64,000 nucleotides of DNA. Source: Verrucomicrobiota bacterium (GTDB taxonomy: Bacteria > Verrucomicrobiota > Lentisphaeria > JABSQK01 > JAJFLO01). The position numbers and the translations under genes were made by a program. The stretch covers positions 813 through 64,812 of the forward strand of contig JAJFLP010000113.1 of NCBI GenBank assembly GCA_021772635.1, in the 5' to 3' direction. Under the pieces are notes generated by a model, which was not told the origin of the DNA, did no database searches, and saw nothing but the letters and a program-made list of their open reading frames with translations. Of this stretch, positions 10,672 to 62,815 are shown in pieces (position 1 is the stretch's first letter; the number at the start of each line of letters is the position of its first letter).

Positions 10672-10866
10672 TATACCGGACGTCTTTACCCAGCAAGCGG
10701 GACGAAAAATCGTTCGGAGTCTCTTTCGCAGTCATTTAAAAGTCGTCTCTCCGTATTCTCGGAGTCCGCTCGGGCAGACCGCATAAGCGTTCCGCACAGA
10801 CGGGATCCTCGCTGATGCGGGACGAGTAATCCAGACCGAAAATTATACCGCTTGCGGTATACTAAC
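10672..10866. repeat. Modular intergenic repeat (composite; ends in tataccgcttgcggtata)
   Basis: Contains the ggagtctctt..., ccgtattctcggagtccgct... and tcctcgctgatgcgggacgag modules. The palindrome ends 7 nt before the serB ATG. Confidence 0.8.
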
Positions 10867-12544: not shown

Positions 12545-12680
12545 CCTGTTCGGAGTCTCTTACCCAATCATTTTGAAGTCGCCTACGCGTAAGCGTCCCG
12601 TACAGACGGGATCCTCGCTCATGCGGGAAGAGTCTCGGATAATCCGGATCGAAAATTATACCGCTTGCGGTATACACTAG
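12545..12680. repeat. Modular intergenic repeat (ends in tataccgcttgcggtata at 12657-12674)
   Basis: Same modules as 10672-10866. The palindrome lies 23 nt upstream of the REC gene ATG. Confidence 0.8.
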
Positions 12681-13140: not shown

Positions 13141-13290
13141 CGCCTCCGGCGGTCCGTATGGACGGATTCTTCCGATATCAGCGTGAATCCGGTCAATACG
13201 GGACACTTACGCGGTACGCACGAGCGGACTCCGAGGATGCGGAGAGCGCCAAGGGCGACCAATTTTCGGTCCGGATTCCCGCGCAACCTT
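13141..13290. repeat. Modular repeat fragment (gtccgtatggacgg, acgagcggactccgag modules)
   Basis: Shares the modules found at 18060-18085 and 34741-34770. Confidence 0.6.
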
Positions 13291-14498: not shown

Positions 14499-17400
14499 TG
14501 TTTCGCAACTTGTTTATGATTGATAAGATCTGCGCATCGTCGAACTGCTCTGCTAATTCCCGTAACTTTATTACAAGAGCGTTATATTTGCTATCCAATC
14601 GGTCGATATCATCTAAAGTCTTCAAAAGTCCTTTGATGTCGCCCCTCTGGGAATAACGAATTATCGCATCGGTATTTTCCTGCGGTGGTAGAACCCAGGC
14701 GAACGAATCGGTTGAACCTGTCGAGTCGGAGGTCGGCGTTTCGCTAGTATTATTATCGAATATTACGTCCAAACCGAGTTCGTCACTCACGAGTTTCAGA
14801 AGTTGCCTGCGATCGACCGGATCGGACAGGAACCCCTGGCAACCCCCTTTCATCGACGTTCCTTGATATTCTTGGGCTACAGAGCCGGAAATAAGAATAA
14901 TTGGGACGCCGCTAAGAGTGGAAAATTTTCGTATTCTCTCAATATCCTGATATCCTCCGTCCGGATCCGGAGCGACAAGGTCGACAATCAGCAAATCCGG
15001 CTTGTTAGAAATCGATCCCTCAACGGCGTTGCTGTCAAGGGTGATTTCTTGAATCAAAAAACCGGATGGTTTTAGCATGTTGGTTAATAATATGCCGTTT
15101 TCTTTATTGTCAGCGGCAATCAGAATTCGGTGATTCTGACCGCAAATCTTCTTTATTTGGCGATTGTCGTTAATCTTCATGTCGCCCACGCCCGTAGCCG
15201 TTACAGCAATCATATCGATGTCGAACCAAAAGGTCGTACCCGATGGCGGTGTACTTTCTACTCTCAGATTTCCCCCCATTAATTCTACTAATTTCTTACT
15301 GATCGCCAGCCCCAGGCCTGTACCACTAATAGAATCGCGCAGATCTCCGACTCGCTGAAATTCCACAAAAATTCTTTCGAGATTGTCGGTGGCGATACCG
15401 ACGCCTGTGTCCGTGACGCTGAAGCGGAGACGGACATAATTTGATTGCCATTGATCCGAGGGTAATGAGAGGACTGTTTGCGTGTGGTCGGGAGGTATAT
15501 CTTTCAAGATTTCAACACAGAAGGTTATGCTCCCGTTATCAGTAAATTTGATCGCATTACCGATAAGATTCAGGAGAATCTGGCGCAACTTTTTCTCGTC
15601 TGCGTATAAATGCTTTGGCAACGCATCATCCGGTTGAAGGATAAAAGCGAGCCCTTTTTGTTCTGATCGAAGTTGGAACATTGCGCGAAATTCACCGAGG
15701 AACTCGGGCAGTTCGAAAACATTGAGGTCAAGATTAAATTCTCCAGCCTCAATTTTTGATAAGTCGAGGACTTCATTTATGAGATCAAGTAAGTGTCGCC
15801 CCGATGACTCGATAATCTTCGCGGCTTTCAGCTGGTCGCCAGTCAGCCTTTCGTCTGCGGTTAGAATTTGCGCATACCCCAGTATTCCATTTAGCGGCGT
15901 CCTATGTTCGTGACTCATATTTGCCAAAAATTCACTTTTCGCTAGTGACGCCGCATCTGCAGCTTTTTTGGCGTCCTTAAGCGATTCCAAATTCTGCTTG
16001 TGGTTGGTGATGTCGCGAAATGTTCCAGTATAGAATACATCATCATCGACAGTGGCTTCCGCGAATGAGGCTTCCATTGGAAATGAGCATCCATCAGCCT
16101 TCTTCCCAGCCAGTTCGCGACATAATTTCTCGGCAGCAGCGCGTTCAAGAATCGTTTTGATCTCTCCTGTCGACGCGTCGCGCGACGACTCAAAATCAAA
16201 ACATACCAGTTCGGTTATCGGTTTCCCTTTGACATCGGCGAGTTGACATCCGAATGCAGCCTCGGCGCATGGATTAAGGGTGGAAATAAGCAGATCATTT
16301 TTCGAAAACGTAACGATCCCATCCATCGCGGACTGCACGATCGCCTCTGTTTTGGCCACGGCGTGTTCCAATGCCCCCATGACCTGGTTGTATAATGATC
16401 CAATTTGACCGACCTCGGTAAATGGCTCAACCGGTACTCTTAGAGATAGATTTCCCGTTTTTTCCTGTTCCTTCATTACTGTGAACAATTCAATTAACTC
16501 CGAACGCTCACCGTGCTCCGTGATATTTAGGCCAGTTGCCTCATCTTTGAGACTGACGCGTATTGGATAAATCTTATTAAGAGTTTTCAGGAAAATGAAG
16601 GCGATGGAGAATGACCAGACGAAACAAGCGCAAATTCCTGAGATTTGCGCGATTATCTGTTCCATCTGTCCGAGTCCGGTTCCAAGCAACTTCGGATCAC
16701 CAAATAATCCGACGGCAAGTGTCCCCCAAATCCCCGCCCCGAGATGTACCGGAATCGCCGACACAGCATCGTCGATTTTGAATCGCAATAGCAGGTTATG
16801 GACCCCGTACATTACGGCTGCGCCGACGGTTCCGATAATCAGGGCTTCTACTGTACTGACAGCGTTGCATGCCGCTGTTATAGCGACGAGTCCCGCCAAC
16901 GCCCCGTTCATGATCAGGATAATATCGAAGTGTTTCTTTAAAATCAGATGGAGAATGATCGTCATCGTAAGACCTGCAGCGCCGCCGATAAGCGTATTGA
17001 ACAGGATTTTCGGGATATACTCATTTACCGTGAGCGTGCTCCCTCCCGTGAACCCGAACCAGCCGAACCACAAGAGCATAACACCGAGGACAGCGGATGG
17101 TATATTGGCAGCGGGGATCTTATTAACAGTACCGTCGCTTGAAAACCTGCCGGCACGCGGCCCGATCACAAGAAGAGCCGCGAGCCCCACCCAACCGCCG
17201 AGGCTATGAATAACGGTAGACCCGGCAAAATCTACGAACCCCCGCTCTGCCAGCCAGCCACCTAAGATTTCCCCGTCGATCCCATTCCAGACCCAATGAC
17301 CGAAAATCGGGTATATGACAACCGAAACAATTATCGTTATACCTATATAGCTCGTAAAACGGATTCGCTCAGCGACCGCGCCGGATAAAATCGTAACCGC

Positions 17401-17706
17401 CGCACCGCAGTACATGAACTGAAATAATAAAAAAGCGGAGAACCAGGAATCTCGTTCATCGACATTGGGTAGAAAATGTGTCGAACCGATCAGGCCGAAC
17501 TTTGATGCCCCGAACATGAGACCGTAGCCGATCATCCAGTAAGCGATTGCCGATATACCAAGGTCAGTGATGTTCTTGGAGGCGACGTTGATATTGTTCT
17601 TACTGCGCGTCAGTCCGGTTTCGAGACACAGAAAGCCTGCCTGCATTAGAAATACCATGCCGGAGCACGAAACTAACCATAAGATGTCAACCGACGATTT
17701 TTCCAA
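14491..17706 (-). CDS. Ammonium transporter (Amt) domain fused to PAS, histidine kinase and receiver domains
   Basis: N-terminal approx. 400 aa are Amt-like (DILWLVSCSGMVFLMQAGFLCLETG). They are followed by a HisKA H-box ANMSHEHRTPLNG, HATPase GTGLGLAISKKLVELMGG, and a REC domain HRILIAADNKENG...LLIVDLVAPDPDGG. Apparent TTG start with GGAG SD. Confidence 0.85.
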   Translation of the reverse strand: MEKSSVDILWLVSCSGMVFLMQAGFLCLETGLTRSKNNINVASKNITDLGISAIAYWMIGYGLMFGASKFGLIGSTHFLPNVDERDSWFSAFLLFQFMYCGAAVTILSGAVAERIRFTSYIGITIIVSVVIYPIFGHWVWNGIDGEILGGWLAERGFVDFAGSTVIHSLGGWVGLAALLVIGPRAGRFSSDGTVNKIPAANIPSAVLGVMLLWFGWFGFTGGSTLTVNEYIPKILFNTLIGGAAGLTMTIILHLILKKHFDIILIMNGALAGLVAITAACNAVSTVEALIIGTVGAAVMYGVHNLLLRFKIDDAVSAIPVHLGAGIWGTLAVGLFGDPKLLGTGLGQMEQIIAQISGICACFVWSFSIAFIFLKTLNKIYPIRVSLKDEATGLNITEHGERSELIELFTVMKEQEKTGNLSLRVPVEPFTEVGQIGSLYNQVMGALEHAVAKTEAIVQSAMDGIVTFSKNDLLISTLNPCAEAAFGCQLADVKGKPITELVCFDFESSRDASTGEIKTILERAAAEKLCRELAGKKADGCSFPMEASFAEATVDDDVFYTGTFRDITNHKQNLESLKDAKKAADAASLAKSEFLANMSHEHRTPLNGILGYAQILTADERLTGDQLKAAKIIESSGRHLLDLINEVLDLSKIEAGEFNLDLNVFELPEFLGEFRAMFQLRSEQKGLAFILQPDDALPKHLYADEKKLRQILLNLIGNAIKFTDNGSITFCVEILKDIPPDHTQTVLSLPSDQWQSNYVRLRFSVTDTGVGIATDNLERIFVEFQRVGDLRDSISGTGLGLAISKKLVELMGGNLRVESTPPSGTTFWFDIDMIAVTATGVGDMKINDNRQIKKICGQNHRILIAADNKENGILLTNMLKPSGFLIQEITLDSNAVEGSISNKPDLLIVDLVAPDPDGGYQDIERIRKFSTLSGVPIILISGSVAQEYQGTSMKGGCQGFLSDPVDRRQLLKLVSDELGLDVIFDNNTSETPTSDSTGSTDSFAWVLPPQENTDAIIRYSQRGDIKGLLKTLDDIDRLDSKYNALVIKLRELAEQFDDAQILSIINKLRNNG

Positions 17707-17773: not shown

Positions 17774-17893
17774 TCCGATTCGTAATCTTGCTCTTACTCT
17801 TACTCGTAATCATAATCTTTCTCGTTTTTCGAGGTGATGAAATTTGGAAAGAGATTACGATTATGATTACGAGGACGATTACGAATAAAATCC
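17774..17893. promoter_or_regulatory. Inverted array of cgtaatc heptamers (3 per arm) upstream of the Amt-kinase gene
   Basis: attcgtaatc...ctcgtaatcataatc at 17774-17813 is mirrored by gattatgattacgag...gattacgaat at 17856-17893. Located 70-190 nt upstream of the 17706 start. Confidence 0.45.
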
Positions 17894-17943
17894 AACGAAA
17901 AGTTCGTGCATATACCCATCGTCATTAGGTTTTTCAACCGTCC

Positions 17944-18115
17944 ATAGTTCCTGCTGGCCAGCAGAACGACGGCTGTTCAATATATCGTTCGGAATCCCTT
18001 AGATGATTTAGGTTAAAAGTCTTCTCTCCGTATTCTCGGAGTCCGCTTGTGCGGACCGCACGAGCGGAGTCCGTCCATACGGACCAAATATTATACTGCT
18101 TGCAGTATAGATCGA
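17944..18115. repeat. Modular intergenic repeat (ctgctggccagcag, ccgtattctcggagtccgcttgtgcggaccgcacgagcgg, tatactgcttgcagtata)
   Basis: Perfect 18-bp palindrome at 18092-18109, 23 nt upstream of the DUF899 gene ATG. Confidence 0.8.
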
Positions 18116-18741: not shown

Positions 18742-19297
18742 TGCTAAGGCGTGATACGTGTTTATTCATTAACTATTAACGGAGTCAACGACTTCCAGAA
18801 CAGCCAGAGGCTTAAAAGATGTGAAACGCTCGAAGCCGATCGTTTTCTGCCGCCACCAGGGCGGCTTCCGTCAATTTCGCTTTGTTCAGAAAAATTAGCG
18901 TACGACTAACTAGACCCTGTTCGAAAAGGTCTAGCGAGCCGCGTTGGGTGCGCATGAAGGACAGGTTTTGATGATTGCCGCTCACGTTAATACCTTGTAG
19001 GTATTGACTTAGCGATAATCATCAAAAGATGCCTTCATCCGCCCCAACCCTGTGGGCGCGAGTCTCTTTCGGCGAATATTGGACATCTTCAACGAAATGT
19101 CGGGAGAAAATGAGATAATTTGGCATTTTCGCAGTCGATTCGGCTAAAGCCCGACAGGCTCCTAGGCTGATAAGTAGAATTGCATTCCACGCGGCCTAAT
19201 CTATCGTAGTATAAAATCCAACAAATTTTTCGATTTTGATTTCTCTATCTGGATGTGACCTTTGAGTGCTATCAGAAAAATTAGATTCCAGCGACGA

Positions 19298-19687: not shown

Positions 19688-19795
19688 TTTTAGACTGTAA
19701 GCAGTCGAATTTTTGGGACGACTTTGAATTTGTCAGCTATAAGATTCCGGTATGAAATTCATCCCGTATGCGAGACAAAGGTGCTCAGTATACGG
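19688..19795. repeat. Inverted copy of repeat 2337-2432
   Basis: The reverse complement matches the tatactgagca...ccggaatcttatagctga.aaattcaaagt...caaaaattcgactgctt.cagtcta modules. Confidence 0.8.
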
Positions 19796-21664: not shown

Positions 21665-21770
21665 TTATACTGAGCATCTTCGAGTTTTCGACCCGGCGTT
21701 CGGAGTCTCTTACGCAATCATTTTGAAGTCGGCCGAAAATTCTACTGCCTGGAGTATACCATTGGCGGCA
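21665..21770. repeat. Modular intergenic repeat
   Basis: ttatactgagcatcttcgagttttcgacccggcgttcggagtctcttacgcaatcattttgaagtc ... tactgcctggagtatacc. Confidence 0.8.
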
Positions 21771-22794: not shown

Positions 22795-22927
22795 TTATAC
22801 CGAACGCCTTCGAGTTTTCGACCCGGCGTTCTGCTGGCCAGCAGAATACCGGTTAAAAAAATCGTTCGATATCTCTTACGTACTTGGTTTGAAGTCATCC
22901 GAAAATTGAACTGCTTGCAGTATAATC
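22795..22927. repeat. Modular intergenic repeat (MITE end tataccgaacgccttcgagttttcga + ctgctggccagcag + ctgcttgcagtata)
   Basis: Same TIR sequence as the canonical copy at 46696-46954. Confidence 0.8.
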
Positions 22928-22947: not shown

Positions 22948-23439
22948 TCACGCCACGGAAACCGGGATACGCTTTCCTGTTTCTTTTTGTTTTGTTTTCG
23001 GTACTGACAACGTCAATACACCTTTCTTGTACTTCGCTTTGGCTTTGTCAGCCTGTGCATAATCCGGGAGCGGCAACGTCCGCTCAAAAAAACCGTAGGA
23101 ACATTCCACGCAGTGCGCCTTCTCGTCCTTCGTCTCGTGCGTCTTCTCGCCGCGTATTTTTAGATATCCATTCTCTATAGTTACATCGATATCTTTTTCA
23201 TTCATACCGGGGAGTTCCGCTTCGATCCTTATTTCTTTCCTTGTTTCGCTGACGTTTACTTTCGGGCTCAGCGAGCGAGACAAGTTCGACCGCATAAGGC
23301 CAAACTCTACGAAAGGATTCTCGAAGAATCGATCAAAATCTGAGGAAGCGTTTTCACGCGGACGTTGCGGTAAATGTGTTTCTTTTTCGTCAGCCCTTTC
23401 TTTTTTCCAATTAAAGGGCAAAAGATCACGGATCTTCAT
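22948..23439 (-). CDS. Hsp20/alpha-crystallin small heat-shock protein
   Basis: Alpha-crystallin domain (VNVSETRKEIRIEAELPGMNEKDIDVTIENGYLKIRGEK...GVLTLSVPK). AGGAGG SD before the ATG at 23439. Confidence 0.85.
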   Translation of the reverse strand: MKIRDLLPFNWKKERADEKETHLPQRPRENASSDFDRFFENPFVEFGLMRSNLSRSLSPKVNVSETRKEIRIEAELPGMNEKDIDVTIENGYLKIRGEKTHETKDEKAHCVECSYGFFERTLPLPDYAQADKAKAKYKKGVLTLSVPKTKQKETGKRIPVSVA

Positions 23440-23527
23440 GATAAATCCTCCTTTCACTAATTAAACATTTGGGGTTGAGATTTGTGAAACGGCGGCGGCA
23501 ACCTGTGTTGCCGCCGTCGTTTCGGTT

Positions 23528-23923
23528 TTATCCTACCTTCACCTCAATTCTTTTCGGCTTCGCAGACTCGCGTTTTGGTAATTCCAAGTTCAGAACACCA
23601 TTTTTTATCGACGCTTGAATTTTCTCTTCGTCAATGACTTCGGAAATATGAAACTGACGTTCATAATTTCCTGTCTCATATTCCGAATGTACCTTTTCGC
23701 AGGCTACGGTGTTGTCAGGAGCTACCCTTCCAAGAATACTGAGAACGCCGTCCTCCAATTTCACGTCTAACCCGTTTTTATCGACTCCAGGCATTTCGAC
23801 ATCAAGGTTGTAACTATCTTGAGTTTCCCAAATGTCGACTTTCGGCGTGAACGTATGTTGATTGACCGCTTGTGTTTGCTCTGAAAGTTGAGATTCTGAT
23901 TTTTGCATTGCTGTACCACTCAT
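23528..23923 (-). CDS. Hsp20/alpha-crystallin small heat-shock protein
   Basis: VDIWETQDSYNLDVEMPGVDKNGLDVKLEDGVLSILG...GVLNLELPK. AGGAGG SD before the ATG at 23923. Confidence 0.85.
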   Translation of the reverse strand: MSGTAMQKSESQLSEQTQAVNQHTFTPKVDIWETQDSYNLDVEMPGVDKNGLDVKLEDGVLSILGRVAPDNTVACEKVHSEYETGNYERQFHISEVIDEEKIQASIKNGVLNLELPKRESAKPKRIEVKVG

Positions 23924-23940
23924 TGTATTTCCTCCTTTCT

Positions 23941-24384
23941 TTAGTCGTTTCGTACTGTTACAGATATTCTTTTGGGCTTTTCCTCTGCCGCCAGCGCAAG
24001 CGAAATACTTAGTATCCCATTCTTGCATGATGCCGAAACCTTGTCGGAATCGACCCGGAATGGCAATGTCAGTTCTCGACGAAATTTCCCAGTTGAACGT
24101 TCACTGCGCTGATATGAATCTCCCTCCACCTTGGCTCGCCCGTGGCGTTCGCCAGAGATGGTAAGCTTATCCGGTTGCACTTCCAGCTCAATATCCTGCG
24201 GATCGACTCCCGGAACTTCAGCCGTGAGAAGGATCGAATTATCATTCTTCCATGCATTCAACTTTGGAAATGCCGCCGTGCTCGATCGCTCCCGGGGAGC
24301 CGACCCGAAAGAGCGGTCTAGCTCACCGAACAGCTGATTCAAGCCCGACAATTGATTGATTAAGCGTTTGTCTAACCAGTACAT
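23941..24384 (-). CDS. Hsp20/alpha-crystallin small heat-shock protein
   Basis: LTAEVPGVDPQDIELEVQPDKLTISGER...GILSISLA. AGGAGG SD before the ATG at 24384. Confidence 0.85.
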   Translation of the reverse strand: MYWLDKRLINQLSGLNQLFGELDRSFGSAPRERSSTAAFPKLNAWKNDNSILLTAEVPGVDPQDIELEVQPDKLTISGERHGRAKVEGDSYQRSERSTGKFRRELTLPFRVDSDKVSASCKNGILSISLALAAEEKPKRISVTVRND

Positions 24385-24690
24385 TGTTCTTGCCTCCTTT
24401 CGTTTGAGTTGAATTATGATTAACAAATTACGTCCACCGTGTTCGATTGCCGACATAGCCATATTGATGCCAATGATTGAATTTCTATTTATAACCAATT
24501 GCAAAAAATATATTTGCGGAATATGAAAAAGACGTTAGCGGTATTGAGTGCGTCTAAATGACACACTTGTCAGTGAGGCGGACTTCCTCCTGCTGTCACA
24601 GAGTCAGGGGACAAGAATCTTTCTCAAGAAACTCGGAAATCGGATGCCATAGATCCAGGTCTCTTCAAAAAGGTTAAATTAAGGAGAAGG

Positions 24691-24862
24691 CTAGCCTGAT
24701 TATTTCATGCGATTCGTCGCGAGAGTACTTAACTCGCTCATAATAGATCGATTAGAGAAAACTTGACGGCGAAAGTGAATATACATTTGCTGAGATGTAA
24801 AGTTGAGCTAATCGGCTTATTCGGGCAGAGATTAGGGCTTGTAGCAGAATACTGATGAATTA
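24691..24862. repeat. Copy 1 of an approx. 175-nt paralogous noncoding element (begins ctagcctga)
   Basis: Roughly 80% identical to 24986-25157. Lies in the 740-bp divergent intergenic region between the Hsp20 operon and the HMA gene. No conserved ORF. Confidence 0.7.
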
Positions 24863-24985
24863 TTCTGGTTAGCAGAACCGGGAAAATATAAAGGGTACCC
24901 CTTCAATCATACGGGCTTATTCTTGATGGCAGACGATATCGATGATATAATTGGAAATGCGAGTGAATCAGCTAAGAACAGTTCA

Positions 24986-25157
24986 CTAGCCTGAATAATT
25001 CACGCGATTCGTCGCGAGAGAACTTAACTCGTTCATAATAAAACGATTGGAGAAGGCGCCACGGTGAAAGTGTATTTTCATTCACTTAGATGTGAAGTCA
25101 AGCCAATCGGTTTATTTGAGCAGAGATTAGGGCTCGTAGCAGAATACTGGTGAATTA
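24986..25157. repeat. Copy 2 of the approx. 175-nt paralogous noncoding element
   Basis: See copy 1. Conserved segments are tcgtcgcgagag.acttaactcg.tcataat, agcagagattagggct.gtagcagaatactg.tgaatta. Confidence 0.7.
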
Positions 25158-25246
25158 ATCAGACAAGAAAGATAAAGCGTGTCATATCTTGAATTTAACA
25201 TATTGGCCGGAACAATCGCCAATTCAAAACGTCTTGGTTTAACATT

Positions 25247-26497: not shown

Positions 26498-26629
26498 TGA
26501 TGACATCCCGGAGAAACCCAATGCCATTCAACCGAACGAGACTGCAAGCAGTCAATACTGATCGGTTTCGCCCGTTTCCAACGGGCGGCCCCTTCCTACA
26601 TCTTCAACTAAAAAATACGGAGTTTAACA

Positions 26630-27739: not shown

Positions 27740-27892
27740 GCTGGACCTATACTGCAAGCAGTAGAACTTTGCTCCGGACTGCACGAGGTCAGGAAGTTCT
27801 GTGTGGATACTGGGGATTTGCGTTCGTAGATTCTGTATACCGAAAATTATGGAATTTTCGACCAAGCGTCGGCTAAGGCGGGACATGATGCC

Positions 27893-27990
27893 GGGTAAAA
27901 ATATACCGTTCGGAAATTCTTGGCTGATAAATTCGAAGCTATCCAAAAATTGTACTGTATGCAGTATATTTCCTGACGCCAGTAATTCAA
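27893..27990. repeat. Modular repeat fragment (ataccgttcgg...ataaattcgaagc...aaaaattgtactgtatgcagtata)
   Basis: Matches modules of the 2337-2432 copy. A short palindrome copy also occurs at 27751-27768. Confidence 0.7.
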
Positions 27991-30339: not shown

Positions 30340-30610
30340 TTTGTCTATTTTCAGTCCAGGCTCAATGTCATTCAGTTAAGGAATCATATTATTCGGGACC
30401 GTTGGTCCGGATGGCCGAGACTCTTCCCGCATGAGCGAGGATCCCCTCTGTGCGGGACGCTTGTGCGGAGAGGTCACGCTTCAGCGTGGTATTTCTTTAC
30501 CAGGAACTTAAGAACCACGCCCCGCGACTGCGTGGGCGCAAACTCCAACATGCGCCTTGAACGTGTCCCGTTTCCTTAACTTAATGACATTGAGTCCAGG
30601 CTGACACTGT
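30340..30610. mobile_element. MITE-like element with approx. 26-bp terminal inverted repeats (tccaggctcaatgtcattcagttaag / cttaacttaatgacattgagtccaggct)
   Basis: TIRs at 30353-30378 and 30574-30602 flank an approx. 200-bp GC-rich hairpin-rich core. A partial TIR-like match lies at 31133-31150. Confidence 0.6.
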
Positions 30611-30639
30611 ATAAGGAGAAGTCTTTTAACTAACCACGC

Positions 30640-30680
30640 AAGAGATATCGAACGATATTTCGAAAACTCGAACGCGTTCG
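30640..30680. repeat. Solo MITE end / hairpin (cgaacgatatttcgaaaactcgaacgcgttcggtata)
   Basis: Reverse complement matches the TIR tataccgaacgc.ttcgagttttcgaaa. Confidence 0.7.
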
Positions 30681-30699
30681 GTATAGATGCAGCCGATAC

Positions 30700-33014: not shown

Positions 33015-33190
33015 TATACTGCAAGCAGTACAATTTTTCGACGACTCAATCGTGGTAGCGTATGGGATTCCGAGCAATATTTCTCTCCGTATTCTCGGAG
33101 ACCGCTCGTGCGGACCGCATAAGCGAGGGTCTCGGGTAATCCGGACGAAAACTCGCTGACGAATTATGATACCGACAGCGAAGGAACTAT
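33015..33190. repeat. Modular intergenic repeat beginning with palindrome tatactgcaagcagtaca
   Basis: The palindrome at 33015-33032 lies 25 nt upstream of the srkA start on the minus strand. Followed by the ccgtattctcggagaccgctcgtgcggaccgcataagcg and gggtaatccggacgaaaac modules. Confidence 0.8.
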
Positions 33191-33315
33191 TGACGTCAGA
33201 GATAGTTCCAGTAGATTCGTGACTGAGGGAAGGACTGCAAGCAGTCCATTTTTCAGAAAACGCACTTGAACATGATCGGTAAAAATTATACACAAGGAAT
33301 CATAATTTTCGTCTT

Positions 33316-34044
33316 ATGCCATATTCACAACTAAATTTAAAAGAAGCGGCTGCCTATCTTCATCTGAGTACTGATCAAATGGAGAAACTGGCGCGTGACG
33401 AGAATTTATCGGATAAATTCGTTAAAGATCAGCCGGTGTTTTCAAGGCGGGTCCTCCATGATTGGTTAAGCCAGAAATTGGTTGGCAGTAAAGCCGAGTC
33501 AATCGATCGCTTCGATAGCGCGGTAATCAACCTCGAAGAAATGTCGATCGAACGGGAAATATTGTTTCTCAGCCAATTCCTGACTCCATTCACCATCAAT
33601 CCAATGCTTGAAGCGAAAACGAAAAGCAGCGTTCTCCGGGAGCTGGTTAAACTCGCTGCGAAAAGTGAGTTACTAACCGATGAAGCCGAGTTGCTGCAGC
33701 TGGTCGGCGAACGCGAGGCCCTATGCTCGACGGGTCTCGGTCGCGGCGTCGCGATGCCACACAGTCGAAATCACTCGGATTACTTGATCCTCGACTCGTT
33801 TCTCGTTATCGCACGGATACCCGGAGGAATCCCATTCGGATCACCGGACGGAGAGCTGGTCGATTTATTTCTTATGCCGTGCGCGAATAATGACCGTCTC
33901 CACCTGCATATGATCGCGCGCATCGCGCTTCTCCTGCATAAAACTGACCTGGCGAATGAGTTACGCGACTGCGCGACTGCTGAAGAAATGGCGGACACTG
34001 TCGAAGATATCGAAAGGGTCTTTACGGAAGACAACGAAAAATAG
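33316..34044 (+). CDS. HTH DNA-binding domain fused to PTS EIIA (EIIA-Ntr/fructose-type) domain
   Basis: N-terminal excisionase-type HTH (LNLKEAAAYLHLSTDQMEKLARDENL). C-terminal EIIA_2 domain with the phosphorylatable His context GRGVAMPHSRN. Confidence 0.7.
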   Translation: MPYSQLNLKEAAAYLHLSTDQMEKLARDENLSDKFVKDQPVFSRRVLHDWLSQKLVGSKAESIDRFDSAVINLEEMSIEREILFLSQFLTPFTINPMLEAKTKSSVLRELVKLAAKSELLTDEAELLQLVGEREALCSTGLGRGVAMPHSRNHSDYLILDSFLVIARIPGGIPFGSPDGELVDLFLMPCANNDRLHLHMIARIALLLHKTDLANELRDCATAEEMADTVEDIERVFTEDNEK

Positions 34045-34125
34045 GGTGCCTGCAGCCGGATTTTCGAATCGCGCAGAATTGACCGCGTAAAATCTTCGAG
34101 AACTCGTTAGATATGACCTGCGAAC

Positions 34126-34711: not shown

Positions 34712-34985
34712 TCTATACCGCAAACGGTATAATTTTTGGTCCGTATGGACGGACTCCGCTCGTGTGGAGAAGACTTTTAACCTGTCACCTAAGGGATTCC
34801 GAACGATATAGACTGCAAGCAGTCGAATTTTCGATCCCGCATGCGGAATCACGGTAGGCAAATATTTTAGAAAACTTGTCGGCGTGTGTCGCGTTGCGAC
34901 GACGTCGCTCACGCGAAAACCTGACTGGAGTTGGTATATTTTTATCCGGTATTCTGCTGGACAGCAGAACGGGGAATTAAACCCA
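34712..34985. repeat. Modular intergenic repeat (composite, approx. 270 bp)
   Basis: tataccgcaaacggtataattt, gtccgtatggacggactccgctcgtgtggag, agactgcaagcagtcgaattttcgatcccgcatgcggaatc and ttctgctggacagcagaac. Confidence 0.8.
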
Positions 34986-36740: not shown

Positions 36741-36947
36741 TATACCGAACGTCTTCATCCCGCATGCAGGATGAAAAATCGTTCGGAGTCTCTTACACAA
36801 TCATTTTGAAGTCGTCTCTCCGCATTCTCGGAGTCCGCTTATGCCGCCGGCACAAGCGGACTCCGAGAATGCGGAGAGAAATATCGTTCGAAATCTTATT
36901 CGCGGTGAGATTCAGGTCGTTCAAAACCTCAACTGCTTGCAGTTTAT
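36741..36947. repeat. Modular intergenic repeat with a long internal palindrome (ctccgcattctcggagtccgcttatgccgccggcacaagcggactccgagaatgcggagag)
   Basis: MITE end tataccgaacgtcttc. Roughly 60-bp near-perfect palindrome at 36826-36888. Confidence 0.8.
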
Positions 36948-37094: not shown

Positions 37095-37586
37095 TTGCCG
37101 AATGATTCATTTTTCAGGAAATACCGTCACCGTCGATTACCCAAGATCAATTTCCATTTTCATGAACTCACGGTCGACAATAAGGCCGTTGTCCTTTTGG
37201 AAATTGGGGCTGCTTTTCGGCATCCGGTGCAGTTCAAGAATACAGAGTACATCCGTATCGGTTCGTATAAGAAGAAACTCAAAGATTTCCCCGAGAATGA
37301 GCGCGAACTATGGCGTGTATTCGATAAAACGCCATTCGAACAGGAGATTGCCGCAGAAAACGTGAGCTCCGATGAGTTCCTCCGCCTATTGGACTATCCC
37401 AGCTTTTTCGATCTTCTACAATTACCATTACCGGAATCGCGAGAAGGCATTTTGGGCGGATTGGAGGCAGAGGAAATGATCGGGCAAAGTCAAAGCGGCA
37501 ATTGGAATATTACGAATCTTGGAGCCGTATTGTTCGCAAAGAAACTAGCTGACTTTCGTACATTAAACGCAAAGCAGTCCGTGTAA
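37095..37586 (+). pseudogene. Fragment of an AlbA_2/Schlafen-like domain regulator, truncated at both ends
   Basis: YIRIGSYKKKL... segment resembles the distal AlbA_2 domain. The ORF stops abruptly where the rpsO 3' duplicate begins. Confidence 0.3.
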
Positions 37587-37587
37587 T

Positions 37588-37696
37588 TTAAGCCGCTTTA
37601 TGATGTCCAGATACCGCGTGTGCGCAGTGCGATTGAGGTACTTAGGCAATTTCCTTCGACGATTCACCACAGCAATAAGCCCACTTCTTGAATGGG
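37588..37696 (-). pseudogene. Duplicated fragment of the rpsO 3' end (approx. 109 bp, about 90% identity to 40232-40340)
   Basis: Direct alignment of ...gccgctttatgatgtccagataccgcgtgtgcgcagtgcgat.gaggtactta.gcaatttcc... Encodes an S15 C-terminal peptide, ...[24 protein letters not shown]. Confidence 0.8.
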
Positions 37697-37882
37697 AGGT
37701 ACAATAATCGGCCGAGCAACAGAAATTTAATGATGCAGGACAATGCGAGCTGCGCGTCGCACGGGTACTGACCGTCGGGCGATTGGACGACGATGTCGCG
37801 GCACCCGCAACTCTATCGTCGCAACAACAACGGCTGGACCAGTTGGAGCAGTTGCGACGCACCACAACCGAAGGACTGGGAT

Positions 37883-38010: not shown

Positions 38011-38120
38011 AGATAGACTGCAAGCTGTCGAATTTTCGATCCCGCATGCGGGATCACAGTAGGCAAAGATTTTATGAAACTTGTCGACAGCCTGACTGGA
38101 AGTTAGGATAGTAGCGACGG
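38010..38120. repeat. Modular repeat (agactgcaagctgtcgaattttcgatcccgcatgcgggatc...ggcaaagattttatgaaacttgtcgacagcctgactggaagttagg)
   Basis: Near-identical to 34812-34935 and 51177-51268. Confidence 0.8.
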
Positions 38121-38143: not shown

Positions 38144-38737
38144 ATGCATCCTCGCGTAAACGAATTACATAATATCATGCCGATTGATAACATTCCTTCG
38201 GTATTACGATATGGAATATTGTCAAACAATCGAGCCTCGAAGTTACACCACCAGTCCATTGCAATGGATGAAATTCAAGACCGCCGGGATAAGATCAGAA
38301 TACCGGGCGGATCAAAATTGCATCACTACGCAAACTTATATTTCGACGCGCGCAATCCGATGATGTATAAACGGAAAGAAAACGCGAGTGATCTGTGTAT
38401 ATTGAGAGTATCAGCGGACGTGCTTAAAATTGACGGAACAGTGATTGCGGACAGGAATGCGTCCAGTGACTATGTCCGGTTCCTGTCGCCGGATGCGTTA
38501 GAGCAACTGGACTTTGACATGATTTTTGCCGCCGACTGGAGACACTCAGACGAGATTGCATATTATAAACACCGATCAATCAAATGTGCGGAGGTCCTGA
38601 TACCGGACTATATAGATGTTCATTATATAGTCGGTGCCTTTGCGGTAAACGACAAAATCGCGAGTACGTTGAGGAAGGCGGGGTTCATGTTACAAATTGA
38701 CGTAAATCCATATCTTTTTTCAGTGAGTGACGGATGA
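38144..38737 (+). CDS. darT: DarT ssDNA ADP-ribosyltransferase toxin (DUF4433)
   Basis: Collinear similarity to characterised DarT (IMPIDNIPSVLRYGIL, IAMDEIQDRR, HHYANLYFDARNPMMY, catalytic-Glu context KCAEVLIP). Its stop overlaps the darG start. Confidence 0.75.
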   Translation: MHPRVNELHNIMPIDNIPSVLRYGILSNNRASKLHHQSIAMDEIQDRRDKIRIPGGSKLHHYANLYFDARNPMMYKRKENASDLCILRVSADVLKIDGTVIADRNASSDYVRFLSPDALEQLDFDMIFAADWRHSDEIAYYKHRSIKCAEVLIPDYIDVHYIVGAFAVNDKIASTLRKAGFMLQIDVNPYLFSVSDG

Positions 38738-39846
38738 TTAAAGTTAAAATAGGCGATTTATTCGAAAGTCAGGCAACGACGCTTGTTAATACGGTGAACT
38801 GCGTCGGAGTGATGGGGAAAGGAATTGCCCAGGAATTCAAAAAACGATTCCCGGAAATGTTTAGTGATTACGCGCAACGATGCAATCTAAACCGTGTTGT
38901 TCCTGGTGTTCCCTATTTATACACAGACCTTCTTGGAACATCAATTATAAATTTTCCAACCAAGAAACATTGGCGATCACCGTCACGCATCAGCGACATA
39001 ATTCATGGGCTTGATGTTTTTCTGAATGAATATGAAAAATGGAATATCGACTCGGTCGCATTCCCACCACTGGGTTGTGGAAATGGCGGACTTGAGTGGA
39101 GCTTGGTAGGTCCAATTATATACCAAAAATTGTCCGCTGAGAATATCTCTGTTGATTTATTCGCCCCGTATGGAACCCCTAAAAAACAACTCTCAATTGA
39201 TTTTCTTGAACAACCGGTGGATCGAGACGATTCAGTTAAGGGGCATACTCAACGGAAATTCAATGTCGCATGGGTCGCCTTACTAAACGTCATAGATGAA
39301 CTCCAGAAGCAACCCTATGCCAATCCAGTAGGACGAACGATTTTTCAAAAAATCTGCTATGTAATGACTGAATTGGGGCTGGAAACCGGATTCGAATTTA
39401 GGCAAGGAAGCTATGGACCTTTTTCGCCAGAGGTTCAGGATACATTGAGTGTCTTTGCCAATATGAATCTCGTACAGGAACAACAGTTGGGACGAATGAC
39501 CGCACTTAAAATCGGACCCGAATACAAGACTATATTAACTCAATATGCTAATCAGCTATCCCAATATAATGACAAAGTAAGGAAGACCGTGGATTTATTC
39601 AGTCGCGTAAAAAGTACAAAGCAGGCGGAAGAGGTAACGACGGTTCTTTATGCTGCACGCACGTTAAAAACTGAAGAAAACAAAAATTCCGTTACTGAGC
39701 AGGATATTTTCGATTTTATTATCGACTGGAAGAAAACATGGACAGGTCAGGAGAAGCGAAACTCTATCGTAAAAGCGATTCGTAATCTTGAAGTGCTTGG
39801 ATGGTTACGACTGAAGTACAGCGAATCTCTACCACAGCCTGAATGA
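38734..39846 (+). CDS. darG: DarG antitoxin (N-terminal macrodomain + C-terminal DarT-binding region)
   Basis: Macrodomain motifs LVNTVNCVGVMGKGIAQEF and PPLGCGNGGL. Total 370 aa. Confidence 0.75.
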   Translation: MIKVKIGDLFESQATTLVNTVNCVGVMGKGIAQEFKKRFPEMFSDYAQRCNLNRVVPGVPYLYTDLLGTSIINFPTKKHWRSPSRISDIIHGLDVFLNEYEKWNIDSVAFPPLGCGNGGLEWSLVGPIIYQKLSAENISVDLFAPYGTPKKQLSIDFLEQPVDRDDSVKGHTQRKFNVAWVALLNVIDELQKQPYANPVGRTIFQKICYVMTELGLETGFEFRQGSYGPFSPEVQDTLSVFANMNLVQEQQLGRMTALKIGPEYKTILTQYANQLSQYNDKVRKTVDLFSRVKSTKQAEEVTTVLYAARTLKTEENKNSVTEQDIFDFIIDWKKTWTGQEKRNSIVKAIRNLEVLGWLRLKYSESLPQPE

Positions 39847-39973
39847 CTTCATCCATACTCCATTGTCTGCGAACGTCAATGCGCCCAAGGATAAACTTTT
39901 TTTTCGGTGGAACTGGGTTGTGGATTTAGACAGACGATCGAAGTCAGATCAGTTCGGGAAGGATAAGGAAGAG

Positions 39974-40050
39974 TGGTAGCGGGTCAGGGATTCGAACCCC
40001 GGACACGTGGATTATGATTCCACTGCTCTAACCAACTGAGCTAACCCGCC
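39974..40050 (-). tRNA. tRNA-Met (anticodon CAT; elongator-type or tRNA-Ile2)
   Basis: Hand-folded cloverleaf: acceptor GGCGGGT/ACCCGCT with G1-U72, D-arm GCTC/GAGC, anticodon stem GTGGA/TCCAC with loop ATCATAA, T-arm CGGGG TTCGAAT CCCTG, encoded 3' CCA. Confidence 0.8.
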
Positions 40051-40217: not shown

Positions 40218-40481
40218 TTAACGTCTTAACTTTAGCCGCTTTATGATGTCCAGATACCGCGTGTGCGCAGTGCGATCGAGGTACTTAAGCAATTTCCGTC
40301 GGCGATTCACTAACGCTATAAGCCCACGTCTTGAGTGGTGATCTTTCGGATGCTCCTTAAGATGTTCCGTAAGTTCCTTGATCCTCGCAGTAAGTACCGC
40401 GATTTGGACATCCGAAGATCCGGTATCCTTATCATTGACACCGTGCTTCTTGATAATCTTCGTTTTTGCTGACTTCTCCAT
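40218..40481 (-). CDS. rpsO: 30S ribosomal protein S15
   Basis: ...[46 protein letters not shown]... Confidence 0.9.
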
Positions 40482-41721: not shown

Positions 41722-42345
41722 TCAGTTGGCCGGTACTGCCGCACCGCGGGCTGAGGCGATAAAATTCTTAACTTTCGTATGGTTCTTGATCCCTTTACTT
41801 TCTTCAACGCCTGATGATACATCGACTCCATACGGTTTTACGGTTCGAATGACGTCGGCAACGTTACCAGAATTCAAACCACCTGCTAGAAACACCGGTC
41901 TCACCTCGGCTGCTTGCCGAGCTAAATCCAGATCCCCAAGCTTTCCAGTTCCACCGTAGGTGTCGCCGGGTGTGTCAATCATCATAGTGCAACCGGGGAA
42001 TTGACTAAGTTTTTCCAAGTCCACGGTCGTTTCAAGTGAAACGGCCTTTATCACGTTGTCGAACCTTAAGTCGGCGACCTGGTCAGGGGATTCAGCGCCG
42101 TGCAGCTGCAATACATGTAGCCGACAGAAGAGAGCGATCTCGAGCATATCCTCATTTGGTTCATTGACGAATACCCCGACATTCTTCGCCTCCGATGGCA
42201 ACTTCATAATGATTTCACGAACTTTCGCCGGCGTAACGTACCGCGGCGACCCGATATGGAATATATACCCCAATAAATCGGCCCCGTTCTCAACCGCGAA
42301 CACTGCATCACTTAAATTGGTAATACCGCAGATCTTTACTTTCAT
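41722..42345 (-). CDS. trpF: Phosphoribosylanthranilate isomerase
   Basis: MKVKICGIT... TIM-barrel PRAI signature. Confidence 0.8.
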   Translation of the reverse strand: MKVKICGITNLSDAVFAVENGADLLGYIFHIGSPRYVTPAKVREIIMKLPSEAKNVGVFVNEPNEDMLEIALFCRLHVLQLHGAESPDQVADLRFDNVIKAVSLETTVDLEKLSQFPGCTMMIDTPGDTYGGTGKLGDLDLARQAAEVRPVFLAGGLNSGNVADVIRTVKPYGVDVSSGVEESKGIKNHTKVKNFIASARGAAVPAN

Positions 42346-42358
42346 GGCGACAGTGATA

Positions 42359-42400
42359 GTTGCTGAGTTGCTGGGTTGCTGGGTTGCTGGGTTGCTGAAT
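42359..42400. repeat. Tandem 9-mer repeat (gttgctggg x4, first unit gttgctgag)
   Basis: Seen directly in the trpG-trpF spacer. A separate 2x14-nt tandem (attttcgattgacg) lies at 41652-41680 in the trpF-trpD spacer. Confidence 0.8.
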
Positions 42401-46695: not shown

Positions 46696-46954
46696 TATAT
46701 ACCGAACGCCTTGGAGTTTTCGAAATTCCAAACTTCAAGCGGTATGGTAATTGTACACGCTCGAACCTTTCGCGGGCGAGCTGGAGCAGATACAGTACGT
46801 AACACAAAACCCGCAAGCCTGACAAGTATACAACAAGCAGTACAATTTTCGGTCCGGATTAACCGAGACTCTCGCTTATACGGAGATGACTTCAAACCAA
46901 GTACGCAAGAAATATCGAACGATTTTTCGAAAACTCTAAGGCGTTCGGTATACC
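46696..46954. mobile_element. Canonical MITE-like element with 28-bp terminal inverted repeats (tataccgaacgccttggagttttcgaaa ... tttcgaaaactctaaggcgttcggtata)
   Basis: TIRs match at 27 of 28 positions. The approx. 200-bp internal region contains the palindrome module tatacaacaagcagtacaatttt. No coding capacity. Confidence 0.7.
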
Positions 46955-49923: not shown

Positions 49924-50059
49924 TAGACCGTGGTATTTCTTCGTTTTGAAGTAAGTGTCTTTTTTAGACCGCACGCACTCGAATTTTTGACCAATAACAG
50001 GTATTATTACGCATGGGATTCGTAACGGGATTTGGTTCCGCATGCGGGACCGCGGTCAT

Positions 50060-50150
50060 GAGTATACTGCAGGCAGTACAATTATTGAAAGCCTTCAAAC
50101 TTTCCACCTAAGGGATTCCGAGCGATATTTCAAGAACTCAATGGCGCTGG
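50060..50150. repeat. Modular repeat (atactgcaggcagtacaattattgaaagcc...aagggattccgagcgatatttcaagaactc)
   Basis: Shares modules with 34780-34810. Confidence 0.7.
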
Positions 50151-51169
50151 GTATACAACCCGCTACATTTTCCGATTTCTACTTACTTGAGACTATGGGA
50201 CTATTCACAAAAGACATTCACCCTTTGGAAGCGTACGTTCAAGGCGGGTTTCTTTGCTCGAAATGCAAAAAATTCATTGAGCTCGAAGGTTTACATCCGC
50301 TTGAAATGGGCCGCTGTCCGTATTGCGATACGCCGAACTTCATACCACAACGTATAAGCCAGTTTTGGTTATTTTACCCGCTTGGCGGCGGTGGTATGGG
50401 TGCGGTTTACAAGGCATATCATGAGGACGTCCGTGACGAGTTCTTCGCCGTAAAAGTACTCCCTCGGGAAAAAAAGACAGACCCGGAACTAATAGAGAAT
50501 CTTCAGTTGGAAGCTACCACGGTCACAGCGCTTGGATCACATCCGTGCATAATTGGCGGCATTGAGACGGGTTTCGAGGATGGCGAACACTATCTCGCGA
50601 CACAGTTCATTTCCGGCGAACGCCTGGACAAAAGAATCGATCGCCTCGGGAAACTGCCGGAGTTTGAAGTGGTCTCTATCGCCCTTCGCCTATTATCCGC
50701 GGAAGCGCATATTTACAACCAGGGTTTTCTCTTCCGCGATATGAAACCTGAGAACGTCATGATCACAGAGAAAAATGGTGCGTATCTTTATGACTACGGG
50801 ATTTGCCTCGACGTTGAAGAGGCGCAGAATCAGGCGGGGGATTATGTTGAGGGATCGCCGTTTTACATGCCGCCTGAACGCTTGTCCGGCGGCACCGAAG
50901 GAGCATATAGCGAAATCTACAGCCTCGGGATGGTACTTTATAATACCCTCGCGGGGAAAACATACTTCTCTGCAAAAGAGTTGAAGGAATTGGCCCGCAA
51001 GTTGGTGCAATCGGTGCGGTTGTCGAATATGGACAGCAAAATGAAAGCGATCACTCCGGAGCTCGCCATGATTATTGATAAAATGATTAAACGTGATCCA
51101 GAGAAGCGGTACCAGAATTTTGCGGACGTGGAAAAGGACTTCATTATATTTTTAAATGGGCAATTTTAA
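50142..51169 (+). CDS. Ser/Thr protein kinase with N-terminal zinc ribbon
   Basis: Zinc ribbon CSKC...CPYC. Kinase motifs GGGGMGAVYKA, AVKVL, FRDMKPENVMI. Start placed after the repeat element, at 50142. Confidence 0.7.
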
Positions 51170-51172
51170 ATA

Positions 51173-51268
51173 ACTAGACTGCAAGCAGTCGAATTTTCGA
51201 CGATCTCTTGCCATGGTAGGCAAAGATTTTAGAGAACTTGTCGAAAACTTGACTGGAGTTAGTATATC
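51173..51268. repeat. Modular repeat (agactgcaagcagtcgaattttcgacg...ggcaaagattttagagaacttgtcgaaaacttgactggagttagtat)
   Basis: Near-identical to 38010-38120 and 34812-34935. Sits immediately after the kinase stop, so it may act as a terminator. Confidence 0.8.
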
Positions 51269-52135: not shown

Positions 52136-52215
52136 AAATATTCTTGTTATACTGCCCGCGATCTCTCTGCATAAGCCAGAGTCCAGGACATTCTGAATCG
52201 GGATTTAACAACAGT

Positions 52216-54186: not shown

Positions 54187-54414
54187 TATTACAGGTCCTT
54201 AATTTTATTCGGATCATCTTCTAGATCTCGATCGGTATTTCGAAAATCCGGTCTACAGTTCCTTCGCCGATATTCGAAAACTCGATTGCTTAAAGTCTAC
54301 TATTGCATTTCTTTTCGATAGTCCATACATGTATAATTTTTCCCGCGACAGTCAAATCTGATCCTAAAGATTTTCTCCGTCAACAACCAACCGTCCTGGT
54401 ACGGCCTTAGCATA

Positions 54415-62689: not shown

Positions 62690-62815
62690 TTAGCAGCGAT
62701 CGAGACTATACTGCCCGCGATCTCTCCGCATAAGCGTCCCGTATCGACGGGATCCACACTCATGCGGGAAGAGTCTCGGGTAATCCGGACGAAAACCTGA
62801 AGACGTTCGGTATAA
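62690..62815. repeat. Modular intergenic repeat (tatactgcccgcgatctctccgcataagcg, tcccgtatcgacgggatc, gggtaatccggacgaaaac, gacgttcggtata)
   Basis: Shares modules with 52140-52200, 12590-12650 and 33120-33140. Confidence 0.8.

Follow-up and report, generated by a model that had tools for sequence, protein, structure and literature searches.

Genomic setting and abundance of the repeats

The 64-kb window, by which we mean the whole stretch of DNA analysed, is a segment of a bacterial chromosome with a GC content of 48%, and it carries housekeeping genes including the trp operon, glnA, htpG, murJ and the genes for the CCA-adding enzyme and PTS enzyme I. The nearest other relatives of the CCA-adding enzyme are 58–61% identical to it, and the named ones belong to Lentisphaeria. 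Five syntenic loci of relatives (L006/L007, L008, L009 and L010), amounting to 92 kb at 58–61% protein identity, were compared with the window. No transposase, integrase or Y1/RAYT domain was found among the ~55 ORFs of the window, and the search for a cognate transposase proposed in a previous sequence-only reading of this DNA therefore came back negative there. An autonomous copy was likewise not found anywhere in the DNA covered, and no transposase was seen in loci L003–L010.

The gaps between the genes contain a family of short repeats that totals 3,352 bp, corresponding to 5.2% of the window and to 31% of its 10.8 kb of non-coding DNA based on the curated gene list. Family sequence is present in 26 of the 40 gaps of at least 40 nt. 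The sequence-only reading had described these repeats as filling most intergenic regions, which is correct for the number of gaps occupied and too generous for the share of non-coding bases. Self-blastn of the window recovered 27 repeat-bearing segments (3.2 kb in total), all 20 loci listed in that reading carry family sequence, and its figure of about one locus per 2.5 kb was reproduced. Such a local density, with 5% of the DNA and one third of its non-coding part, is high for a bacterium. A repeat finder reported 42 direct and 91 inverted families in the window, chaining the listed loci together; in one of these families the internal sequence is 83% similar over 118 nt.

The family bases lie wholly outside genes, occur in both orientations and show no bias between 5′ and 3′ gene ends. 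The lack of orientation bias relative to genes would fit a selfish insertion filtered by tolerance alone. A suggested coincidence of the repeats with truncated genes was not borne out. The sole clear gene fragment found, the 3′ part of rpsO at 37584–37695, is a 112-bp duplication bracketing the DarT/DarG-tRNA island.

Termini, base unit and modules

The feature common to the family is a terminus with a fixed length of 25 nt and the skeleton TAKAC-N12-RNTTTTYG. There are 31 exact copies of this skeleton in the window and five more with one mismatch; a slightly looser regular expression gives 38 matches, where 3.1 are expected and no shuffle has more than 9. The terminus is bipartite, having an outer TA+KAC block and an inner RNTTTTYG block on the two sides of a variable 12-bp centre that comes in three flavours. 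The A flavour reads TATACCGAACGCCTTCGAGTTTTCG and the C flavour TATACGAACTCCAGTCAGGTTTTCG, and neither the A nor the C ends are palindromes. The third flavour, B, is palindromic. The B end reads TA[T/G]ACTGCAAGCAGT[A/C]NAATTTTYG, the hairpin being its first 18 nt.

Seventeen complete elements of 80–206 bp, with no conserved ORF, were recognized along with about 15 partial copies. An A or C end is paired with a B end in all 17 of them, which makes the element polar. Both ends, when read inward, give the TAKAC-N12-RNTTTTYG skeleton, with A and B ends identical at only ~15 of the 25 positions. An identity of 27/28 between two ends is seen only in the atypical A–A pair 46698/46952, which the sequence-only reading had taken for the two ends of a complete element at 46696–46954. 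The 28-nt inverted repeats it described do exist (46698–46725 and 46925–46952, with one mismatch), and what they enclose is not a canonical unit: 46827–46952 is a normal 126-bp B–A unit, and at 46698 there is an extra inverted solo A end (46698–46726, plus strand), the left arm of the described repeat, with 100 nt of unrelated sequence between the two. The 28-bp terminal inverted repeat (TIR) also had to be abandoned as the definition of the family, since the 28-mer is found within three mismatches at four sites only and the ends are heterotypic.

Based on a MAFFT alignment, the E-type base unit is 93 bp long (25 + 43 + 25) and consists of an A end, a 43-nt core and a B end, as in E1, E2 and E11. 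Hairpin modules are optional and are added at either of two fixed junctions, each immediately internal to a terminus. The four F-type copies have a C end, 30–80 nt and a B end, and they form the most homogeneous group, with a mean identity of 87% compared to 67% for the E copies. No identical copies were found. It is noted that the copies are old and heterogeneous, with no sign of current activity.

The interior of the elements is a mosaic of about eight recurring motifs in variable order, each module being present in 4–8 copies and adjoining either terminus. Four copies of the module TTCTGCTGGCCAGCAGAA, eight copies of the module TCCCGCATGCGGGA and four copies of the core CGTTCGGAGTCTCTTACGCAATCATTTTGAAGTC (at up to three mismatches) are found in the window, with ~0 expected for each, in agreement with the recurrence of internal modules pointed out earlier. 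The TCCGGATTACCGAGACTC module, followed by further hairpins, adjoins the TTTTCG of the A end in E5, E13 and E14 and that of the B end in E6, E10 and E15, and direct reading of the sequences places it in the inward orientation in every case. Its presence on both A and B ends in the same inward orientation suggests that the ends are equivalent and formerly had longer subterminal repeats. A comparison of E3 and E10 is also informative: their 93-nt backbones are 94% identical, yet their hairpin modules differ and stand at opposite junctions, so that modules are gained and lost faster than the backbone diverges.

Distribution of individual copies

The complete 93-bp base elements are E1 (2338–2430, plus strand; nhmmer E=6e-23), which has convergent genes on either side and its A and B ends at 2338–2362 and 2406–2430, E2 (21666–21758, plus; E=1e-23) and E11 (50063–50155, minus; E=5e-22). 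Longer copies differ from them by their modules. E5 (6145–6272, plus), a complete 128-bp element, has the TCCGGATTACCGAGACTC hairpin module beside its A end, and E4 (27836–27968, plus) is a complete element of 133 bp. E3 (22796–22924, plus; 129 bp) has a 36-nt hairpin after its A end. E10 (46827–46952, minus; nhmmer E=2e-20), the regular 126-bp unit mentioned above, has its B end at 46827–46851 and its A end at 46928–46952, which leaves 9 nt to the ATG of the gene for the CCA-adding enzyme. The 190-bp E6 (10672–10861, plus) is built from a modified A end, the core, three hairpin modules and a B end located 8 nt before the ATG at 10870. E8 (17911–18109, plus; 199 bp) contains the TCCTGCTGGCCAGCAGAA hairpin and other modules, and E7 (36741–36946, plus; 206 bp) has two cores on either side of a perfect palindrome of 32+32 nt. 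E13 (33015–33171, minus; 157 bp) has its B end 22 nt from the ATG of a minus-strand gene and a degenerate A end with a 1-nt indel, and E14 (62707–62814, minus; 108 bp) has an A end (62790–62814), modules and a B-like end without the T run.

Three of the F-type elements stand alone. F1 (9445–9524, plus; E=3e-22) is a complete C–B element of 80 bp. The recurring peptide KFDCLQS, rightly recognized in the sequence-only reading as repeat-encoded, is the translation of this B-type end in a spurious N-terminal extension of the ORF 9488–10408, for which the real start is the ATG at 9536. F3 (38014–38110, minus; 97 bp, E=5e-29) has the TCCCGCATGCGGGA hairpin, and F2 (51175–51266, minus; 92 bp) lies between the genes for a Ser/Thr kinase and a zinc-ribbon protein, 2 nt before an ATG. 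The fourth, F4 (34809–34938, minus; 130 bp, E=1e-28), is nested in E12, with the left part of this host element (34714–34808, minus) containing the B end, modules and core up to the break, and the right part (34939–34972, minus) continuing through the TTCTGCTGGACAGCAGAA hairpin, with the A end missing.

Incomplete and degenerate copies make up the rest. E15 (12547–12674, plus) has a core, modules and a B end without an A end, and E9 (30610–30685, minus) has an A end (30661–30685) and core without a B end. In E17 (19691–19792, minus) a B end placed straight after a stop codon is followed by the core and a degenerate A end. E18 (54206–54299, plus; E=1e-15) is a degenerate element of 94 bp, and another degenerate element at 5859–6004 (plus), 10 nt from the ATG of a minus-strand SNF2 gene, has an A end at 5859–5883, a core-like stretch and a B-like hairpin at 5980–6004. 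Isolated blocks of hairpin modules were detected by the repeat search and self-blastn at 13153–13246 (minus), where internal modules have no termini, and at 30402–30478 (minus). Solo ends or their remnants include a B-type end 9 nt 3′ of a stop codon (27748–27772, plus), a B-like hairpin with GGACTGCAAGCAGTCC and a T run (33231–33255, plus), a degenerate B-like end overlapping the stop codon of 33316–34044 (34042–34066, plus), a degenerate B end with the TTCCGCATGCGGGA hairpin downstream of murJ (49965–50049, plus), and a B-like hairpin remnant 20 nt 3′ of a stop codon (8061–8080, plus) that shares its gap with solo modules at 8344–8357 and 8572–8589. A solo GACTGCAAGCAGTC hairpin is found at 26540–26553 (plus). 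The fragment TATACTGCCCGCGATCTCTCTGCATAAGC at 52147–52180 (plus), found by direct reading, is common to 62707–62740, and a weak degenerate remnant of the family lies at 750–912 (plus; nhmmer E=0.04).

Evidence for movement of whole elements

F4 is a nested insertion in E12, for which the paralogues provide the empty site. When F4 (34809–34938) is deleted from E12, the alignment scores rise from 30 to 44–46 against E3, from 51 to 60–61 against E8 and from 18 to 23–26 against E4, and colinearity is restored, with E12 aligning across the junction into the TTCTGCTGGNCAGCAGAA hairpin with all three paralogues. All 130 bp of F4 went in, both ends included, and the borders are exactly TA...TA. Excision of either 128 nt or 130 nt at this site gives a junction with precedent among the paralogues.

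A second empty site exists at the level of genes. F2 accounts for 92 of the 99 nt between the Ser/Thr kinase and zinc-ribbon genes, which overlap by 4 nt in L006 and by 1 nt in L009. The zinc-ribbon ATG downstream of F2 was confirmed by alignment, and the C-terminus of the kinase in the window is 3–4 residues shorter than those of the relatives. F2 splits two genes that in both of these relatives overlap.

The borders are consistent, with TA at the start and end of all 17 complete elements. A target duplication longer than TA was considered and rejected, as the complete copies have no longer flanking direct repeat; any target-site duplication of the kind that the sequence-only reading proposed to look for would be TA at most, and a TA belonging to the element itself would look the same. 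With the E and F models, nhmmer returns at least 30 matches in the window and no significant match in the relatives' 92 kb, where the skeleton regular expression gives no match in L006–L009 and one chance-like match in L010. The orthologous gaps in four relatives are without the motifs. The comparison shows the abundance of the family to be lineage-specific.

Occurrence outside the window

Full elements of 86–93 nt with an identical B end are found in a Lentisphaerales MAG (L003, L005) whose CCA-adding enzyme is 58% identical, indicating that the family is not private to the source genome. L005 has a 93-bp unit, and the B end of L003 includes the TAG stop codon. A Victivallaceae MAG contains the TATACCGCAAGCGGTATA variant. 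A scan of GTDB genomes with the B-end pattern gave at least five loci. Among the matches listed, those in Mannheimia and Chromatiales are probably due to chance, with ~2 chance matches estimated in 596 Gb. JGI metagenome contigs and IMG/VR yielded no exact matches, and blastn detected no similarity in plasmids or phages. A literature search found no published description of small repeat families in Lentisphaerae.

Structure of the B end and possible effects on neighbouring genes

The B hairpin shows covariation at two pairs of positions. Positions 3 and 16 (alignment columns 5–18) are T:A in 11 copies and G:C in 8, and positions 6 and 13 (alignment columns 8–15) are T:A in 15 copies and C:G in 4. 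In the hairpin, 82.5% of cells are paired compared to 72.5% in shuffles, with none of the 500 shuffles as high and slid controls at 16–47%. These compensatory changes give modest support to selection on the B palindrome, which may act as a hairpin, at either the DNA or the RNA level, or as a binding site with dyad symmetry; the events are few and possibly inherited within subfamilies. No element had a match in Rfam at either gathering or permissive thresholds. For the 43-nt core, RNAalifold predicted no pairs over 16 copies, and the idea of a conserved RNA fold was therefore rejected. RNA folds of whole elements have z values of −1 to −2 for the E copies and are strong only for F2 (−5.3) and F3 (−3.4).

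The B ends were flagged as resembling terminators. In about 12 cases a B end follows a stop codon by 2–20 nt and is correctly oriented, and about nine face gene starts, in the wrong orientation for termination. A dedicated terminator role was rejected on the basis of this division between 3′ and 5′ gene ends. The numbers of terminator- and promoter-like features are not clearly above those of shuffles (31 vs 22.8±5.3, 24 vs 21.8±5.7, 28 vs 23.8±5.6 and 34 vs 23.3±4.9). In the outward direction the termini read TCGAAA-16-TATAnn, and two of them score 10/12 against the sigma-70 consensus; TCGAAA-16-TATAAT is matched at 9470–9443 and 21691–21664. Several termini are located 7–10 nt before confirmed ATGs (10870, 46962 and 5848), and in one case there is a GGAG 10 nt upstream of the ATG. 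The outward motifs are suggestive of promoter donation by the termini, as has been proposed for Correia elements. The spacer of TTGAAC-9-TATAAT, within the B hairpin, is too short for a classical sigma-70 promoter, and this possibility was rejected.

Alternative explanations for the family

REP/BIME-type elements would have as their unit a short palindrome, here the B hairpin TAKACYGCAAGCRGTMTA and other small hairpins, which a REP-associated tyrosine transposase (RAYT) spreads, singly or as doublets in inverted orientation (REPINs), via single-stranded DNA, with mosaics arising by local accretion. We regard this origin as rather unlikely. It would account for the 18-nt B palindrome with its compensatory changes, for the solo B hairpins and modules at 27748, 33231, 26540, 8344 and 8572, for the BIME-like variable order of about eight motifs, and for the absence of both a target duplication beyond TA and a DDE transposase in the window. 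Of the ends, B qualifies as an imperfect palindrome of the 20–40 nt expected for a REP, and A and C, which are not palindromes, do not. Nor does this origin account for unlike ends in 17/17 complete units, a REPIN being made of two copies of one and the same REP. The heads of the window family are TATAC/TAGAC (GTATA/GTCTA on the other strand), not the GTAG or CGTC by which the REP family is defined (PMC3733652). Furthermore, it was a whole two-ended element of 130 bp with exact TA...TA borders that went into E12, and the Y1/RAYT domain is absent from the window ORFs. Even so, the sequence-only reading drew too sharp a line in treating REP/BIME purely as a refuting alternative, as the mosaic hairpin modules do give the family a BIME/NIME-like side. 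If, instead, one larger transposon of the foldback type, whose terminal repeats were long and held many hairpins, left the elements behind as decayed deletion derivatives, any spread would now be by recombination and duplication only and not by transposition of the small units. The TCCGGATTACCGAGACTC module on the TTTTCG of A or B ends, always inward, is the expected look of such a long terminal repeat; E2 resembles what a deletion between direct repeats of CGTTC would make of E3, and the copies have diverged. Against these points, a long parent copy is absent from the 64 kb, the 93-bp base unit recurs at its exact length in E1, E2 and E11 as well as in L005 of another MAG, and F4 inserted as a small unit. 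We find such a foldback origin quite improbable. It should be mentioned that it overlaps with the MITE reading, MITEs being deletion derivatives, and that the one difference is whether the small units are still mobile.

The termini could also be punctuation of the host, i.e. terminators and outward promoters that selection or gene conversion keeps alike and that are passed on in place without being mobile, which would explain the ~12 terminator-like B ends correctly oriented 2–20 nt after stop codons, the stop TAG belonging to the B end in L003, and the two outward TCGAAA-16-TATAAT sites; ends 7–10 nt before the ATGs at 10870, 46962 and 5848 would put the transcription start on the start codon. 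However, ~9 B ends point at gene starts, where they are useless for termination, the terminator- and promoter-like counts do not clearly exceed the shuffles, and the motifs are absent from the orthologous gaps of four relatives. Convergent function does not explain similarity over at least 100 nt of internal sequence (83%/118 nt), and both the nested F4 and the split kinase/zinc-ribbon pair contradict inheritance in place. Host punctuation is accordingly very improbable. A more speculative proposal, which we consider decidedly unlikely, starts from a polar two-ended unit whose B end would have to form a terminal hairpin. The unit might be moved by a single-strand (HUH/Y1-like) or undescribed mechanism without the GTAG/CGTC of known REP systems, and ends located 2–10 nt from start codons might be routine donors of −10-like TATA boxes, giving leaderless transcripts, and of ribosome-binding sites for a sizeable share of genes. 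A resemblance of the termini to Tn3-family or integron attC sites was also weighed and dropped, since neither the orientation nor the gene context fits.

Proposed origin as non-autonomous transposable elements

We propose that the family probably consists of non-autonomous MITEs that expanded in this uncultured Lentisphaeria lineage. The MITE-like dispersed mobile family put forward in the sequence-only reading is retained in this proposal through its discrete units, inverted termini, nested copy, split gene pair, lineage-specific expansion and TA borders, without the 28-bp TIR model. A transposase encoded elsewhere would bind the inner block of the terminus and cut at the outer block. The whole unit would have moved into intergenic sites containing TA and left a TA at each end, presumably by duplication of the target dinucleotide, as for Correia and IS630/Tc1-mariner elements. 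Length variants could result from gain or loss of hairpin modules beside either terminus or from recombination between copies. Effects on neighbouring genes, including those of ends with a hairpin plus T run after stop codons, of the outward TCGAAA-16-TATAnn ends and of the one GGAG before an ATG, would be by-products rather than the reason for the existence of the elements.

Several points stand against the MITE reading. The two ends match on the skeleton alone (~15/25), which is poor for classical TIRs. The covarying palindromic B end and the solo modules (8344, 8572 and 26540) are typical of REP/BIME. The age and divergence of the copies, with no sign of current activity, and the lack of exact matches in JGI metagenomes and IMG/VR also count against it, as does the nested site, where loss of 128 nt or of 130 nt would suit the paralogues alike. 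There is no transposase among the ~55 ORFs of the window, the portion of the genome examined being only these 64 kb.

The family is useful for annotation and for enzyme hunting, and holds no conceptual surprise. Annotation is affected because gene callers extend ORFs through the termini, as in the KFDCLQS case, and the assembly of MAGs is affected by the many repeats of 25–200 bp. Expression may be affected by elements that lie 2–25 nt from start or stop codons and that in one case split a formerly overlapping gene pair. The 25-bp bipartite terminus is a precise search key for the responsible enzyme, which is not known for Correia elements either.

Comparison with known repeat systems

The window family shares with REP/BIME and REPIN-RAYT systems the short extragenic palindromes, the mosaic arrays in alternating orientation, the intergenic location that is often after stop codons, and the absence of a long target duplication. 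It differs in having no GTAG/CGTC head, in that only the B end, of the three types, is a palindrome, and in that its units are bounded by unlike ends and insert whole; no RAYT is present in the window.

Neisserial intergenic mosaic elements (NIMEs) and the BOX elements of pneumococcus have conserved boundary repeats around internal units that vary in number and kind, the NIME boundaries (dRS3) being recombinase targets and BOX having the order A-B(n)-C. The modular make-up of the window family is similar to theirs. The sequences differ, and neither a dRS3-type boundary nor the A-B(n)-C order is seen in the window.

Bacterial MITEs typically have TA termini. In the IS630 family, two HTH motifs of the transposase footprint a 24-bp TIR and insertion occurs at TA (PMC2170065). 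The elements described here resemble IS630/Tc1-mariner elements such as ISY100 in having TA at both borders and nothing longer, and their 25-bp terminus is comparable to the 24-bp two-HTH footprint, with which an outer cleavage block and an inner binding block would fit (PMC2170065). They differ in that an IS630-type gene was not found in the window.

The closest analogue is the Correia/NEMIS family of Neisseria. Correia termini are ~24–26 bp long and begin with TATA-. Correia elements have a 24-bp TIR and size classes of 107 and 155 bp that differ by an internal block, and their cognate transposase is not known (PMC2229807). The window family is like them in its small size (~100–155 bp in Correia elements), in size classes set by an internal block, in the TA at both ends and in having no transposase found for it, as well as in the intergenic location often abutting start or stop codons, the outward promoter-like ends and the hairpin-forming transcripts (PMC2229807). 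Correia elements are present in hundreds of copies and make up a few percent of the genome (PMC2229807). In the 64 kb examined the window family is locally denser, at 5.2% of the DNA and 31% of the non-coding part, and its host is a PVC-group bacterium. There is no sequence similarity between the two. The ends of the window family are heterotypic, A or C with B, with a common skeleton of just 13 positions; its B end is itself a covarying palindrome, and many more module combinations occur. Our best reading is that these repeats are MITEs of the Correia/NEMIS kind with a mosaicism reminiscent of BIMEs, a previously undescribed family of a familiar kind of system.

A palindrome possibly related to the main repeat family

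The motif TAGACCCNGTTCGAAAAG, a portion of a palindrome placed after stop codons, is common to the window (18911-18928) and a relative, where it occurs in the syntenic loci L006 (15156 and 17305) and L007 (7835 and 9984). Its TAGAC head and its TTCGAAAA block are both found in the main MITE-like intergenic family, of which the motif may therefore be either a distant cousin or the ancestral form.

Duplication at the rpsO locus

Two 112-bp direct repeats of the 3' part of rpsO, 89% identical, lie at 37584-37695 and 40227-40338. The intact S15 gene is found at 40218-40481 on the minus strand, while a C-terminal S15 fragment lies inside the ORF at 37563-37865. The segment bracketed by the two repeat copies (38144-40050) holds DarT (38144-38737), a DarG-like gene with a macro domain (38734-39846) and tRNA-Met (39974-40050). 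The whole has the look of a small toxin-antitoxin or defence island that has integrated here, the duplication being of att type. In the relative's locus L006, an integrase gene is located close to the corresponding tRNA-rpsO junction.

Other repeats, hairpins and terminators

The 742-bp gap upstream of a tandem array of three HSP20 genes on the minus strand (22948-24504) contains two 175-bp repeats at 24691-24865 and 24986-25160, 83% identical and 295 bp apart; these may be duplicated heat-shock regulatory regions. Between two of the HSP20 genes, at 23485-23524, there is a strong canonical terminator with an 18-bp GC-rich stem and a T run, in contrast to the weak hairpins formed by the palindromic B ends of the main family. 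Ordinary intrinsic terminators are thus shown to be in use in this organism as well. The trp operon, otherwise free of the main family, has a short tandem repeat, GTTGCTGG(G), in about five copies (42346-42400) immediately upstream of trpF (41722-42345, minus strand). The minus-strand gene for an AmtB-histidine kinase-receiver fusion (14491-17706) has a 44-nt inverted repeat of short TTACGA/TCGTAA-like units (17785-17891) on its upstream side. At 8124-8210, CATGAAG-type heptamers make up a near-perfect hairpin of 87 nt. Its sub-threshold Rfam match to mir-4782, at 43.9 bits where the gathering score is 100, is spurious.

A second repeat family

A second family consists of an inverted pair of hairpins, each GTTGGAGTT followed by CACRC-loop-GYGTG, with about 45 nt between them. 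One member of the pair is on the minus strand at 8454-8476 and the other on the plus strand at 8521-8543; hairpins of similar type are seen at 30473-30490 and 6085-6125. The doublet is kept in L006 (about 5250-5345), from a relative of only 61% protein identity. Its arrangement is REPIN-like.
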